A stretch of 9,385 nt of DNA. It comes from a virus (taxonomy: Duplodnaviria; Heunggongvirae; Uroviricota; Caudoviricetes). Shown here piece after piece: positions 2,557 through 9,385 of the stretch. Every line of letters begins with the position of its first letter. The first letter of the stretch is position 1. The stretch lies in the IMG/VR virus record IMGVR_UViG_2690316099_000013. The stretch is one strand, 5' to 3'. The notes under the pieces are model-generated. The model searched no databases and was not told where the DNA came from. It worked only from the letters and a program-made list of their open reading frames with translations. A program made the translations under genes and the position numbers.

Positions 2557-2715
2557 CGCNNNNNNNNNNNNNNNNNNNNNNNNNNNNNNNNNNNNNNNNN
2601 NNNNNNNNNNNNNNNNNNNNNNNNNNNNNNNNAGAGCCTTATACTGAAATATACCTGGCTCAGGATATTGTTGAAAATATTTTATGTTTGTCAAAAATAA
2701 AAGTTCTGTTAAGTA

Positions 2716-3069
2716 TTGATTGAGTGTTTGTTATACGGTCTAATGGTTTTTTCAGCATTAAATATTTATCATTCATATGGTGTGGGTAGAGTGAATATTG
2801 ATGAGGCGTCGGGGTGTTTCATCCTTAGGCAGCGTATTGATATAGTCAATGCAGCACGAGCAAAGGCCTTCAGCCGTTTGACAGTTTTGTTCTGTACTCC
2901 TGATCGTCTTTCGGGAAGAGACGTTATTATTCTGAATAGTGATGCTATACAGAGGGTTTGCGATGAGTTCATGGTTGCTAATTCAGAATTATTTGCTCTT
3001 GTTCAGGAGTACAACAGAATAGCCAGGACCTGTGGTATGGATGAACTTCGGATTACTCATCTGGGGTAG
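2716..3069 (+). CDS. Orphan hypothetical protein in the stx-equivalent cargo slot; start uncertain (ATG 2716 or 2743, GTG 2782 or 2791)
   Basis: Open frame ending TAG 3067-3069 with an AT-rich leader at 2633-2790. From the GTG at 2791, 10 of 93 codons are AGG, AGA, AUA, CGA or CGG, the codons decoded by the three adjacent tRNAs. I recognise no family. No convincing Shine-Dalgarno precedes any candidate start. Confidence 0.4.
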   Translation: MIECLLYGLMVFSALNIYHSYGVGRVNIDEASGCFILRQRIDIVNAARAKAFSRLTVLFCTPDRLSGRDVIILNSDAIQRVCDEFMVANSELFALVQEYNRIARTCGMDELRITHLG

Positions 3070-3149
3070 ATACATATCTGGATTATCACCTGTTACGGTA
3101 AAAAGTGATTGCTTACTGTTTTTGTGAATGGCATTGCAGCAGCCGGATA

Positions 3150-3236
3150 ATGTCAGTGCTGGCTGACGGTGTGCTGGTGGCGGGTGTGGTGGTTGTTGCT
3201 TTCCCGTTGCTGAAAAAGAAAACGCCAGACTGTTAG
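3150..3236 (+). CDS. Small hydrophobic peptide (28 aa, MSVLADGVLVAGVVVVAFPLLKKKTPDC); paralogue of the 3' part of the 3797-3949 gene
   Basis: ATG 3150, TAG 3234-3236. The first 11 codons are identical in protein to codons 26-36 of the downstream gene and differ only at synonymous third positions. DNA upstream (3098-3149) resembles the 5' part of the downstream gene but carries an in-frame stop, so this may be a decayed copy expressed from an internal ATG, or a remnant. Confidence 0.35.
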   Translation: MSVLADGVLVAGVVVVAFPLLKKKTPDC

Positions 3237-3374
3237 CCGGGTATCAGTTAGCGGGAGAAATTTTTAAATACTTCACAATTCAGGCGGTTGACTGTTGNNN
3301 NNNNNNNNGTGTGACTTTCTCTGTGGGCTGGTCACCCCCGGGCGCAGGCTCACCCACTAAAAGGAAAAGTCACG

Positions 3375-3800
3375 ATGTTTGGTATTTTCAAAAAGAAAAC
3401 CCGCAAGGCCATTACCGAGGTGAAGAAGATGGAGAACCGTGACGCAGTGGAGGCGACCGTCTGGGGCGCGTACTCCATTGCATACGCTGACGGCACCTGT
3501 GACGCGAAAGAAATCGCGGTACTGGAAAAAACCATTGCAGCACTTCCTGTCTTTGCGCCGTTCTCCGGTGAGATTGCACAAATGAGTGCAAATATCCGCG
3601 CCCGTTATGAAGCGTCGCCGCGTTCTGCCAATGCCGAAGCTCTTCGTCAGCTGGCTGATGTTGCCGGTACTGATGATGCAGTTAATGTGCTGTGCCTGTG
3701 TCTGGATATCGCTGACCAGGACGGTATCGCTCAGGAAGAAGAAGCGCAACTGAAGAAAATTGCGCAGGCGCTGCAGTTGCCGCTGGAGCAGTACCTGTGA
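3375..3800 (+). CDS. TerB-like domain protein (tellurite-resistance TerB / DjlA-N-like fold)
   Basis: 141-aa ORF, ATG 3375 preceded by AAGGA; stop TGA 3798-3800. It contains two segments with the TerB signature pattern (AYADGTCDAKEIAVLEKTIAAL and DIADQDGIAQEEEAQLKKIAQALQL), compared against the plasmid TerB sequence from memory. Codon usage is ordinary for E. coli, with no AGA, AGG or AUA. Confidence 0.6.
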   Translation: MFGIFKKKTRKAITEVKKMENRDAVEATVWGAYSIAYADGTCDAKEIAVLEKTIAALPVFAPFSGEIAQMSANIRARYEASPRSANAEALRQLADVAGTDDAVNVLCLCLDIADQDGIAQEEEAQLKKIAQALQLPLEQYL

Positions 3801-3949
3801 AAAGTGCGCGCCTTGTGCTGGCTGTCATCCTGTTGTTTCTGGTAGTGGTGGTTGATTTCACCGGACGACTGATGTCGGTGCTGGCAGATGGTGTGCTGGT
3901 GGCGATGGCGCTGGTCGTGCTCCGGCCTTTACTGCGTAAATCTGAATAA
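3797..3949 (+). CDS. Small two-TM membrane protein (50 aa, MKSARLVLAVILLFLVVVVDFTGRLMSVLADGVLVAMALVVLRPLLRKSE), translationally coupled to the TerB-like gene
   Basis: GTG 3797 overlaps the TerB-like stop (GTGA, 3797-3800). Alternative starts are GTG 3815 or ATG 3872. Two hydrophobic helices and a basic C-terminal tail. Stop TAA 3947-3949. Confidence 0.45.
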   Translation: MKSARLVLAVILLFLVVVVDFTGRLMSVLADGVLVAMALVVLRPLLRKSE

Positions 3950-3958
3950 CATCACACA

Positions 3959-3995
3959 AAAGGCATCTGCGGATGCCTTTGACGGGGTGTTTTTT
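3959..3995 (+). terminator. Candidate hairpin / weak terminator between the cargo module and the lysis cassette
   Basis: 9-bp stem AAAGGCATC (3959-3967) / GATGCCTTT (3972-3980) with loop TGCG, followed by a T6 run at 3990-3995 after a 9-nt spacer. A second T-rich tract lies at 4014-4024. Non-canonical spacing, so this is tentative. Confidence 0.3.
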
Positions 3996-4035
3996 ACGGG
4001 TCGCTGGTGGCCCTTTTTTATTTTCAGGAGGAAGT

Positions 4036-4428
4036 ATGTCTGAACCCTTATCCGGTTCCGGCACGGCTGCGGCGCTGGGGGGCGCGACGGTATTCGGGCT
4101 GTTTACCGGGATGGATTTCGGGATTGTGTTTGGCGCGTTCGCCGGGGCGTTATTTGTGGCAACGATGCCGCAGTCACTTTCAGTCTGGCGCGTGGTGGCG
4201 CATTTTCTGGTGTCGTTTATTGTCGGCGTGCTGGGAGCGCGTGTGCTGTCAGCCTGGATTGCATCAAAAACAGGGTATGACGGTACATCAGCAGATGCGC
4301 TTTGCGCGGTGCTGGTCTCGGTGGTGTCGGTGAAGATTCTCTCGTTCATCCACCAGCAGGATATTGCATCGCTGGTGTCCGGTGTGTTCTCCCGCCTGCG
4401 GGGTGGAGGAGGCGGCAATGTTAAGTAA
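4036..4428 (+). CDS. Holin-like multi-TM membrane protein (130 aa), first gene of the lysis cassette
   Basis: ATG 4036 with a strong Shine-Dalgarno AGGAGG at 4026-4031. It has 3-4 predicted hydrophobic helices, Gly-rich segments and a charged C-terminus (RLRGGGGGNVK), and sits directly upstream of the endolysin. Call is by topology and synteny, not recognised homology. The ORF-track start at 3973 includes the terminator region and is rejected. Confidence 0.55.
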   Translation: MSEPLSGSGTAAALGGATVFGLFTGMDFGIVFGAFAGALFVATMPQSLSVWRVVAHFLVSFIVGVLGARVLSAWIASKTGYDGTSADALCAVLVSVVSVKILSFIHQQDIASLVSGVFSRLRGGGGGNVK

Positions 4429-5031: not shown

Positions 5032-5482
5032 NNNNNNNNNNNNNNNNNNNNNNNNNNNNNNNNNNNNNNNNNNNNNNNNNNNNNNNNNNNNNNNNNNNNN
5101 NNNNNNNNNNNNNNNNNNNNNNNNNNNNNNNNNNNNNNNNNNNNNNNNNNNNNNNNNNNNNNNNNNNNNNNNNNNNNNNNNNNNNNNNNNNNNNNNNNNN
5201 NNNNNNNNNNNNNNNNNNNNNNNNNNNNNNNNNNNNNNNNNNNNNNNNNNNNNNNNNNNNNNNNNNNNNNNNNNNNNNNNNNNNNNNNNNNNNNNNNNNN
5301 NNNNNNNNNNNNNNNNNNNNNNNNNNNNNNNNNNNNNNNNNNNNNNNNNNNNNNNNNNNNNNNNNNNNNNNNNNNNNNNNNNNNNNNNNNNNNNNNNNNN
5401 NNNNNNNNNNNNNNNNNNNNNNNNNNNNNNNNNNNNNNNNNNNNNNNNNNNNNNNNNNNNNNNNNNNNNNNNNNNNNNNNNN

Positions 5483-5604: not shown

Positions 5605-5872
5605 NNNNNNNNNNNNNNNNNNNNNNNNNNNNNNNNNNNNNNNNNNNNNNNNNNNNNNNNNNNNNNNNNNNNNNNNNNNNNNNNNNNNNNNNNNNNNNNN
5701 NNNNNNNNNNNNNNNNNNNNNNNNNNNTAAATTCTTTCTGTCGCCGCGAATACTCAAATGTTGATCAGTGCCCGGTGCGGCGACGGGCTTCGATATCAGG
5801 AGACGATGATGGAAAAAAACAGAAAACAAACCGATTGTAATTGGTGCTGATGCTGCTCCGTTTAAGTTTGAG

Positions 5873-6241: not shown

Positions 6242-6812
6242 AATGTGAGAAATAAAAAACCGGTCACAGGGAGCAGCTACACAGAAGCGGCCGGCGAAGA
6301 CCGCCAATACCACCCATGCATTGATGCAACATACTAATGACAATAGCCGCTATTGATGTAAATGCAATGTTATGCATCGACGAAAATAAAAAACCNNNNN
6401 NNNNNNNNNNNNNNNNNNNNNNNNNNNNNNNNNNNNNNNNNNNNNNNNNNNNNNNNNNNNNNNNNNNNNNNNNNNNNNNNNNNNNNNNNNNNNNNNNNNN
6501 NNNNNNNNNNNNNNNNNNNNNNNNNNNNNNNNNNNNNNNNNNNNNNNNNNNNNNNNNNNNNNNNNNNNNNNNNNNNNNNNNNNNNNNNNNNNNNNNNNNN
6601 NNNNNNNNNNNNNNNNNNNNNNNNNNNNNNNNNNNNNNNNNNNNNNNNNNNNNNNNNNNNNNNNNNNNNNNNNNNNNNNNNNNNNNNNNNNNNNNNNNNN
6701 NNNNNNNNNNNNNNNNNNNNNNNNNNNNNNNNNNNNNNNNNNNNNNNNNNNNNNNNNNNNNNNNNNNNNNNNNNNNNNNNNNNNNNNNNNNNNNNNNNNN
6801 NNNNNNNNNNNN

Positions 6813-7363: not shown

Positions 7364-7468
7364 NNNNNNNNNNNNNNNNNNNNNNNNNNNNNNNNNNNNN
7401 NNNNNNNNNNNNNNNNNNNNNNNNNNNNNNNNNNNNNNNNNNNNNNNNNNNNNNNNNNNNNNNNNNNN

Positions 7469-8392: not shown

Positions 8393-9385
8393 CAGGCTGC
8401 GGCATTTTGTCCGCGCCGGGCTTCGCTCACTGTTCAGGCCGGAGCCACAGACCGCCGTTGAATGGGCGGATGCTAATTACTATCTCCCGAAAGAATCCGC
8501 ATACCAGGAAGGGCGCTGGGAAACACTGCCCTTTCAGCGGGCCATCATGAATGCGATGGGCAGCGACTACATCCGTGAGGTGAATGTGGTGAAGTCTGCC
8601 CGTGTCGGTTATTCCAAAATGCTGCTGGGTGTTTATGCCTACTTTATAGAGCATAAGCAGCGCAACACNNNNNNNNNNNNNNNNNNNNNNNNNNNNNNNN
8701 NNNNNNNNNNNNNNNNNNNNNNNNNNNNNNNNNNNNNNNNNCCGTGGTATGGCAAAAAGCACCGGGATAACACGCTCACCATGAAGCGTTTCACTAATGG
8801 TCGTGGCTTCTGGTGCCTGGGCGGTAAAGCGGCAAAAAACTACCGTGAAAAGTCGGTGGATGTGGCGGGTTATGATGAACTTGCTGCTTTTGATGATGAT
8901 ATTGAACAGGAAGGCTCTCCGACGTTCCTGGGTGACAAGCGTATTGAAGGCTCGGTCTGGCCAAAGTCCATCCGTGGCTCCACGCCCAAAGTGAGAGGCA
9001 CCTGCCAGATTGAGCGTGCAGCCAGTGAATCCCCGCATTTTATGCGTTTTCATGTTGCCTGCCCGCACTGCGGGGAGGAGCAGTACCTTAAATTTGGCGA
9101 TAAAGAGACGCCGTTTGGCCTCAAATGGACGCCGGATGACCCCTCCAGCGTGTTTTATCTCTGCGAGCATAATGCCTGCGTCATCCGCCAGCAGGAGCTG
9201 GACTTTACTGATGCCCGTTATATCTGCGAAAAGACCGGGATCTGGACCCGTGATGGCATTCTCTGGTTTTCGTCATCCGGTGAAGAGATTGAGCCACCTG
9301 ACAGTGTGACCTTTCACATCTGGACAGCGTACAGCCCGTTCACCACCTGGGTGCAGATTGTCAAAGACTGGATGAAAACGAAAGG
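8367..9385 (+). CDS. A: Terminase large subunit gpA, 5' portion (continues beyond the window)
   Basis: GTG 8367 overlaps the Nu1 3' end in the +1 frame. The translation [100 protein letters not shown]... matches lambda gpA from memory. The frame stays open across the 8669-8741 gap to 9385. It is absent from the ORF track only because no stop lies within the window. Confidence 0.95.
   Translation, partial: MNISNSQVNRLRHFVRAGLRSLFRPEPQTAVEWADANYYLPKESAYQEGRWETLPFQRAIMNAMGSDYIREVNVVKSARVGYSKMLLGVYAYFIEHKQRNXXXXXXXXXXXXXXXXXXXXXXXXXPWYGKKHRDNTLTMKRFTNGRGFWCLGGKAAKNYREKSVDVAGYDELAAFDDDIEQEGSPTFLGDKRIEGSVWPKSIRGSTPKVRGTCQIERAASESPHFMRFHVACPHCGEEQYLKFGDKETPFGLKWTPDDPSSVFYLCEHNACVIRQQELDFTDARYICEKTGIWTRDGILWFSSSGEEIEPPDSVTFHIWTAYSPFTTWVQIVKDWMKTK

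Follow-up and report, generated by a model that had tools for sequence, protein, structure and literature searches.

An upstream DUF3927 open reading frame in a P27-like prophage scaffold is probably the 3′ relic of a second tciB allele

Phage P1 carries the genes tciA, tciB (54 aa) and tciC adjoining its tRNA genes, and the names of these genes rest on homology only. The P1 tci genes were non-essential in a CRISPR interference screen (PMC10695390), and the tci operon is variable among P1-like phage-plasmids (PMC9603915). Here we analyze tciB-related sequences in a window of 9385 nt, which is the whole of the whole-genome shotgun scaffold CXDD01000164.1 (assembly GCA_001253215.1; IMG/VR record IMGVR_UViG_2690316099_000013). 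Two open reading frames (ORFs) of this window are homologous and encode small hydrophobic proteins of a single family, as a first-pass annotation of the window had proposed; the family is Pfam DUF3927 / TciB. We conclude, with a probability of about 0.72, that the upstream ORF is a 3′ relic of a second tciB allele, that the downstream ORF is an intact tciB, and that the two are neighbors only across two scaffold gaps. In all likelihood the fragment does not work as a gene, and the arrangement is either a scaffolding artifact or a one-off recombinant.

The upstream copy is identical to part of an intact gene. A segment of 161 nt (3137–3297, plus strand) is 100% identical to the 3′ portion of an intact tciB allele together with the 61-nt spacer downstream of it, the reference being a locus (L291) in which the intact gene (protein P0094, 57 aa) has its own tciA upstream. 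Within this segment lies an ORF of 28 aa (3150–3236, plus strand), which starts at the conserved internal methionine (ATG 3150) of the family's core motif, [ML]SVL[AS]DG, spans DUF3927 profile positions 26–53, and comprises the second transmembrane segment (TM2) and a basic tail, PLLKKKTPDC. An in-frame TAA precedes it at 3099–3101. A longer ORF of 43 aa with a GTG start (3105–3236, plus strand) is annotated by the Prokaryotic Genome Annotation Pipeline (PGAP) as WP_000562553.1, “DUF3927 family protein.” All three small ORFs score above the curated cut-off of 25 bits for DUF3927 (PF13064), with 95.6 bits for the 43-aa form, 58.3 bits for the 28-aa form, and 54.2 bits for the downstream 50-aa ORF; matches to phrog_1470 (“TciB-like”) reach 49 bits for the upstream and 82 bits for the downstream copy.

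The 5′ part of the upstream copy is scrambled. A trace of the junction between the tciA stop and the tciB start persists at 3085–3103 (plus strand), where 18/19 nt match the junction of intact loci, and the changes within the trace include the ribosome-binding GGAG, now GGAT, and the start GTG, now GTT. There follows a shortened, degenerate remnant of the tciB 5′ end (3104–3136, plus strand) corresponding to the first transmembrane segment (TM1), in which the relic has 32 nt where intact alleles have 52–61 nt and is thus shorter by at least 20 nt. The original tciB frame is closed by a TGA at 3125–3127, and what is left of the TM1 coding sequence is now read in another frame, turning LLLFLVVM into YCFCEWHC. 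The mean hydropathy of this remnant is 0.2–0.5, compared with 2–3 for TM1, and the upstream copy has a single hydrophobic segment. It is preceded not by a TerB gene but by a phrog_2873 gene (the “orphan” gene described below), and its coupling to tciA is lost. Shine-Dalgarno energies are at background level (−3.0 kcal/mol for GTG 3105 and −3.3 kcal/mol for ATG 3150, versus a window median of −2.9), and the promoter-like match nearest the ORF (3122–3151) would initiate transcription 3′ of ATG 3150 and is unusable for it. The region is not an RNA gene, because Rfam finds only three tRNAs in the window and folding of 3070–3297 gives no structure signal (z = +0.78). The upstream copy thus has the hallmarks of a pseudogene or gene relic, namely homology to an intact gene, loss of the start, the frame and TM1, and differently broken copies elsewhere.

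The similarity between the two copies that first drew attention to this locus is real. The string ATGTCAGTGCTGGCTGACGGTGTGCTGGTGGCG at 3150–3182 has a second copy at 3872–3904 with three mismatches (tca/tcg, gct/gca, gac/gat), each at a third codon position, and a second match to this 33-nt string was found in 0/200 dinucleotide-preserving shuffles. The repeat extends over 64 nt at 75% identity (3133–3196 versus 3855–3918), and a distance of 722 nt separates the copies, which share one strand. Comparing them by the Nei–Gojobori method, we found three synonymous and no non-synonymous differences in codons 1–11, strong divergence in codons 12–25 (proportion of non-synonymous differences, pN, 0.53), and a ratio of non-synonymous to synonymous divergence (omega) of 0.37 over codons 1–25. 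The first-pass annotation, which had accurately described MSVLADGVLVA as encoded twice with third-position differences only, took this pattern as a sign of selection on the upstream ORF and proposed the ratio as a check. The ratio turns out not to be diagnostic of that ORF: it equals the value of 0.38 between two intact genes, the JLK-2012-type allele and the downstream type, and the 161 nt are 100% identical to the intact 57-aa allele. Because the upstream copy has zero substitutions relative to that allele, every difference between the window’s two copies predates the truncation, and these differences are therefore uninformative about selection acting on the 28-aa ORF. The signal of purifying selection is genuine, but it was laid down before the upstream copy was truncated, and the alignments indicate that the differences between the copies are the divergence of two intact phage lineages. 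Of the two options offered earlier, a separately expressed peptide or a decaying duplicate, the latter is close to the truth, except that no local duplication was involved.

We propose the following history. The downstream tciB encodes a hairpin of about 50 aa with two transmembrane segments and is translationally coupled to tciA, as is the case in P1 and in many of the lambdoid prophages. The upstream ORF (3105/3150–3236) would be the 3′ remnant of a tciB from a different phage lineage in which the gene order is tRNAs, tciA, tciB, STnc100. Recombination may have swapped the tciA of that lineage for an unrelated 92-aa accessory (moron) gene, leaving a scrambled tciB 5′ end that no longer has the ancestral start codon and frame, the ribosome-binding site or the first transmembrane segment. 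The 28 codons and the 61-nt spacer probably persist through linkage to a small RNA (sRNA) gene of the STnc100/PasD type and through the recency of the truncation.

Loss of tciB has taken other forms in other lineages. In two loci (L006 and L300), tciB is joined at codon 9 to a truncated tRNA-Arg, and its basic tail is frameshifted by the deletion of 1 nt (VAGVWLLLSRC*); this widespread tRNA-Arg-fused lineage occurs in Escherichia coli ECONIH6 and in E. albertii, and falls in the 80–90% identity class, with 327 genome records. The tRNA-Arg of these loci (L006 2380–2470, L300 ~2960–3084) is cut in the anticodon arm, and the 38-aa ORF is still a “DUF3927 family protein” in PGAP (WP_000226111.1). 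Strain FDAARGOS_448 (L005) retains only the final ~50 nt of the gene, as a 15-aa ORF, and two species-level matches (L296 and L298) are 5′-truncated and have no tciA.

Variation within the window’s own type was surveyed in about 115 IMG/VR loci, which were located through a 31-nt pattern in the DNA of the orphan gene and are about 1% diverged. GTG 3105 is GTT in 6/116 viral loci, a nonsense mutation at 3126 occurs in two, ATG 3150 is ATA in one, the 28-aa ORF is intact in 113/114, and five loci have an in-frame 3-nt deletion within the 28-aa ORF. The density of single-nucleotide polymorphisms is 0.155 per nt in the 28-aa ORF versus ~0.06 in its flanks. Frame-disrupting variation in homologous loci, which the first-pass annotation had named as one observation that would refute its proposal, is thus found in part, since orphaned homologues carry a frameshift, start-codon losses and a nonsense mutation. 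Insertion sequences (IS) have also entered this region, after the equivalent of 3071 in L213 and L260 (directly 3′ of the orphan gene’s stop) and after the equivalent of 3236 in L268 (directly 3′ of the relic’s stop). The end of the L268 insertion, GGAAGGTGCGAATAAG, is IS5-like.

How the two copies came to stand side by side is a question of the scaffold. The window covers the late region of a P27-like lambdoid prophage, with a DUF1133/Q-like gene, a DNA methylase gene (1208–2257), and three tRNAs (2307–2556), and further along a TerB-like gene, the 50-aa ORF, two holin genes and an M15 endolysin gene. It contains eight runs of N, already present in the public record (2560–2632, 3298–3308, 5032–5482, 5605–5727, 6396–6812, 7364–7468, 8146 and 8669–8741). 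Because these runs are scaffold gaps, no continuous sequence underlies the order of the genes on either side of them. The relic lies on an island contig of 665 bp (2633–3297, plus strand), a Qin/Stx-type prophage module consisting of the orphan gene, the tciB relic and the spacer. Gaps of 73 N (2560–2632, between the tRNA cluster and the island) and 11 N (3298–3308, between the island and the region upstream of tciA) bound it, and the latter is too short for the sRNA gene of ~190 nt that is found after the relic everywhere else. In the closest gap-free relative (L007) and in nine contigs encoding an identical methylase, the island is absent and the sequence runs from tRNA-Arg straight to tciA. 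Both copies occur together in 0/5426 complete E. coli genomes, and tciAB lies downstream of the module in 0/120 module loci. The right-hand junction, with either a fixed 11-nt or a variable 0–30-nt gap, was found in no genome, viral or metagenome contig, and a guessed left-hand junction in no viral contig. The juxtaposition is not a local duplication, as the copies come from Qin/Stx-like and P27-like modules.

Several observations weigh against our interpretation, and the first of them bears on this arrangement. The left gap of 73 N is close to the 72 nt that separate the tRNA end from the AGAGCCT motif in gap-free L007, as expected for an insertion at a 9-nt microhomology, CAGAGCCTT, which is common to both parents at the left edge. 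The juxtaposition could accordingly be real, in which case microhomology-mediated recombination in one isolate would have placed a Qin/Stx-type segment of 665 bp between the tRNA-Arg and the tciA gene of a P27-like prophage. Such an event would fit with the other small scaffold pieces, which are ordered as in L007, and with the mosaic recombination that is common in these prophages and produces many different junctions. However, the island is flanked by multi-copy sequences, the tRNA cluster on the left and STnc100 on the right, which are typical sites of contig breaks and mis-joins in short-read assemblies; gap estimates are imprecise elsewhere in the scaffold (for example, 451 N versus 346 nt in the closest relative); and the collections searched contain no other example. 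We therefore hold a real insertion to be a credible but tentative explanation, which concerns the arrangement only, and a scaffolding artifact to be somewhat likelier than a singleton recombinant. In neither case is this a local duplication. Adjacency within a gapped short-read scaffold should not count as gene architecture.

The remaining contrary observations concern the upstream ORF itself. RefSeq and Pfam count the 43-aa form as a family member, and its 95.6 bits exceed the scores of intact proteins. Across 114 viral loci no frameshift or stop occurs in the 28 codons, and the sole indel is in frame. The 28 codons have seven synonymous and six non-synonymous variable sites, against an expected synonymous fraction of ~0.3 (P = 0.04–0.09, depending on the assumed transition bias), a comparison of very low power (the orphan gene in the same sample gives 5:11) that we read as a weak hint of constraint on the 28-aa ORF. 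Leaderless or Shine-Dalgarno-free initiation at the upstream ORF is possible.

An alternative, in line with the intact ORF in 113/114 viral loci, its in-frame indel and the 7:6 ratio of sites, is that the upstream ORF encodes a functional microprotein of 28 aa (or 43 aa) with a single transmembrane segment, expressed separately. It would be a TM2-only derivative of TciB that acts alone or modulates the full-length TciB of co-resident prophages. The module is present in ~22% of complete E. coli genomes, and the exact “DUF3927 family protein” sequences are annotated on at least 999 contigs for the 43-aa and 529 contigs for the 28-aa form (at least 1000 for the 50-aa form). Late phage transcription should also cover the region, judging from its position after the Q and tRNA genes. 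We nevertheless consider this alternative unlikely. The upstream copy has accumulated zero substitutions since its split from the intact allele, so its intactness needs no selection, and polymorphism is denser inside the ORF than in its flanks. No Shine-Dalgarno signal rises above background, translational coupling to tciA is gone, eight loci either lack the start of the 43-aa form or have a stop behind it, and one lacks the ATG. Moreover, other orphaned tciB fragments are broken differently, and no common short form is conserved. A literature search found no paper mentioning the upstream peptide. More improbable still is the specific proposal that translation starting at the internal methionine turns the 28-aa TM2-only fragment into a single-pass membrane microprotein, for example one pairing with or poisoning the TciB/TciA complexes of co-resident prophages; if translated and active, a gene fragment carried by about one fifth of E. 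coli genomes would be a newly “born” small protein.

Two copies on one strand at a distance of 722 nt, each after an ORF, might also be read to mean that a single phage duplicated a “partner + peptide” cassette locally in tandem and that the partners diverged later. This reading is very improbable, since the upstream copy is 100% identical to alleles of another lineage and only 75% identical to its neighbor, the orphan gene is unlike TerB and has homologues that occur without DUF3927, and the island lies between scaffold gaps in an arrangement unique to this record.

The downstream pair shows what the intact gene looks like. The product of tciA (3375–3800, plus strand) has 141 aa and a TerB domain and is a homologue of P1 TciA; it matches Pfam TerB (PF05099) with 33 bits (cut-off 24.4) and phrog_632 (“tellurite resistance”) with 215 bits; a sequence search of the PDB with TciA returned no meaningful match and no solved close relative. 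The intact tciB (3797–3949, plus strand; DUF3927, 50 aa) has a GTG start overlapping the tciA stop (GTGA) and a Shine-Dalgarno GGAG of −5.6 kcal/mol, and its two hydropathy peaks correspond to the two-segment transmembrane hairpin of the family. We surveyed this architecture in two sets of 80 viral loci. The 4-nt GTGA overlap of tciA and tciB is present in 80/80 loci of the first set, where every tciB is intact, 49–54 aa long and has a GTG start. The second set is more diverse; of its ~75 intact tciB genes (50–55 aa), nearly all directly follow tciA, and the few exceptions appear to be failures of the adjacency test. The association extends to Pantoea stewartii and a proteobacterial metagenome-assembled genome, where tciB follows a TciA only 39–43% identical to that of the window. 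TciA is the sole regular partner of TciB, and TciB is presumably the membrane partner of the soluble TerB-domain TciA. A protein search returned 756 clusters, with most sequences 50 or 54 aa long and from Escherichia and Citrobacter, and a scan of one genome per species gave only seven family loci. Neither TciA, the two DUF3927 ORFs nor the orphan protein matched known defense proteins (PADLOC models, E ≤ 0.1), and a search of NCBIfam returned no family for the proteins searched.

Between tciB and the first holin gene lies a hairpin with a terminator-like stem and a T-run (3945–4021, plus strand). It consists of an inverted repeat, I2 (3945–3994; hairpin AAAGGCATCTGCGGATGCCTTT), and a terminator-like GC-rich stem (3998–4013) followed by TTTTTTATTT. 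Together, the hairpin and this second stem, which precedes TTTTTTATTTT, resemble a terminator or possibly a small RNA derived from the 3′ untranslated region; Rfam has no family for the structure at 3945–4021.

The 3′ end of the relic is tied to a small RNA gene. The spacer (3237–3297, plus strand) lies directly upstream of an sRNA gene of the STnc100/PasD type in complete loci, and the island ends 4 nt before that gene. In E. coli strain 64 (L004), the Rfam STnc100 match (RF02076) begins at 4169, 5 nt past the equivalent of window position 3297, and 112/112 viral loci read through into STnc100-side sequence. Either the relic or the intact tciB of the same lineage leads into STnc100 within a few to ~70 nt (Rfam 100–165 bits), with copies at L004 4169–4358, L005 2625–2814, L006 2665–2858 and 3134–3322, L291 3240–3448, and L001 3166–3338. 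In Stx/Qin-type prophages STnc100 follows tciB or its relics, sometimes in two copies, and AgvB or AsxR anti-sRNA genes come next on the opposite strand (L100, L091 and L095). The order tciA–tciB–STnc100 appears to be a recurrent module. In enteropathogenic E. coli (EPEC) E2348/69 (prophage PP2), PasD2 (741157–741328; from PMC8550237, table S6) begins 41 nt after a DUF3927 stop codon, and a 2026 preprint ties PasD and STnc100 by descent (bioRxiv 10.64898/2026.05.13.724894). All three truncation types examined retain over 100 nt on the 5′ side of the sRNA gene, from which we infer that deletions spare the sRNA promoter and that the gene fragment hitch-hikes with it. A possible link to another sRNA, PasA, was rejected: its probe contains GTCAGTGCTGGC, which matches 12 nt of the repeat, but the PasA gene of EPEC is on the opposite strand, some 2 kb distant and behind the esterase gene, and we regard the match as chance.

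The other gene of the island is unrelated to tciB’s usual neighbor. The island is 99.8% identical to E. coli strain 64, and at least 80% of it is present in 1184/5426 complete E. coli genomes (~22%), between the Q/tRNA genes and STnc100/iraM. Its orphan gene (2791–3069, plus strand; 92 aa, GTG start, phrog_2873 with a PHROG score of 234 bits) follows a tRNA cluster of the ileZ–argN–argO type. It shows no similarity to TerB, and none of the complete-genome matches listed carries a PGAP annotation of it. Gap-free 92-aa homologues in L009 and L010, at ~75% DNA identity, give an omega of ~0.26, and the orphan ORF is a genuine independent gene of 92 aa. No DUF3927 sequence follows it in either of these loci. 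A modular architecture of a partner gene plus a peptide gene, suggested earlier from the two different upstream neighbors, does not hold in view of these homologues and of TciA as the only regular partner of TciB.

Every component of this locus is ordinary and already catalogued, including DUF3927/TciB, TerB/TciA, STnc100 and WP_000562553.1. The finding is of little biological importance, and what the tightly coupled, widespread TciA–TciB pair does in P1 and lambdoid phages becomes no easier to test through it. It has some importance for annotation, as WP_000562553.1 (43 aa), very common in E. coli, appears to be a gene fragment. It also illustrates that synonymous-only differences between paralogues can be fully inherited from intact ancestors and are no proof that both copies are alive. 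Many database entries for the 43-aa ORF are incomplete because their contigs stop within the gene; short-read assemblies thus break frequently here, as expected for a multi-copy prophage repeat. The DUF3927 model aligns the out-of-frame N-terminus of the 43-aa relic to profile positions 7–25, and intact TciB proteins reach only 54–72 bits; the Pfam model seems to be weighted towards the relic sequence.

The locus can be placed among described systems as follows. The 3105–3236 ORF is identical in sequence to RefSeq WP_000562553.1 (43 aa) of Qin-like E. coli prophages, but whereas RefSeq treats that protein as an ordinary member, we find a fragment with a scrambled 5′ end whose first 14 residues are the out-of-frame remains of TM1. 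The downstream copy resembles P1 TciB (YP_006541.1) in its length class (50 versus 54 aa), two-segment transmembrane layout and [ML]SVL[AS]DG core, and lies, as in P1, directly after a TerB-like tciA and near phage tRNA genes, although the window has no tciC, unlike the P1 tci operon. The upstream copy is like P1 TciB in matching the C-terminal half of the DUF3927 profile, and unlike it in having no TM1, original start or tciA partner. With the STnc100/PasD loci of prophages of EPEC and enterohemorrhagic E. coli it shares its boundary, as the sRNA gene begins a few nucleotides past the end point of the island; unlike those loci, the window has no sRNA gene (Rfam finds tRNAs only), and unlike in the Qin/Stx lineage, STnc100 does not follow the tciAB pair of the P27 type. 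A further parallel is with the gene remnants left at mosaic junctions of lambdoid prophages by moron exchange, which likewise consist of a 3′ fragment at a module boundary, show several independent breakpoints in one small gene, and have an unrelated AT-rich accessory gene as a neighbor. Compared with such remnants there is nothing unusual about the upstream tciB copy, and its sole peculiarity is that annotation and the Pfam model take a fragment for a full member of the family.

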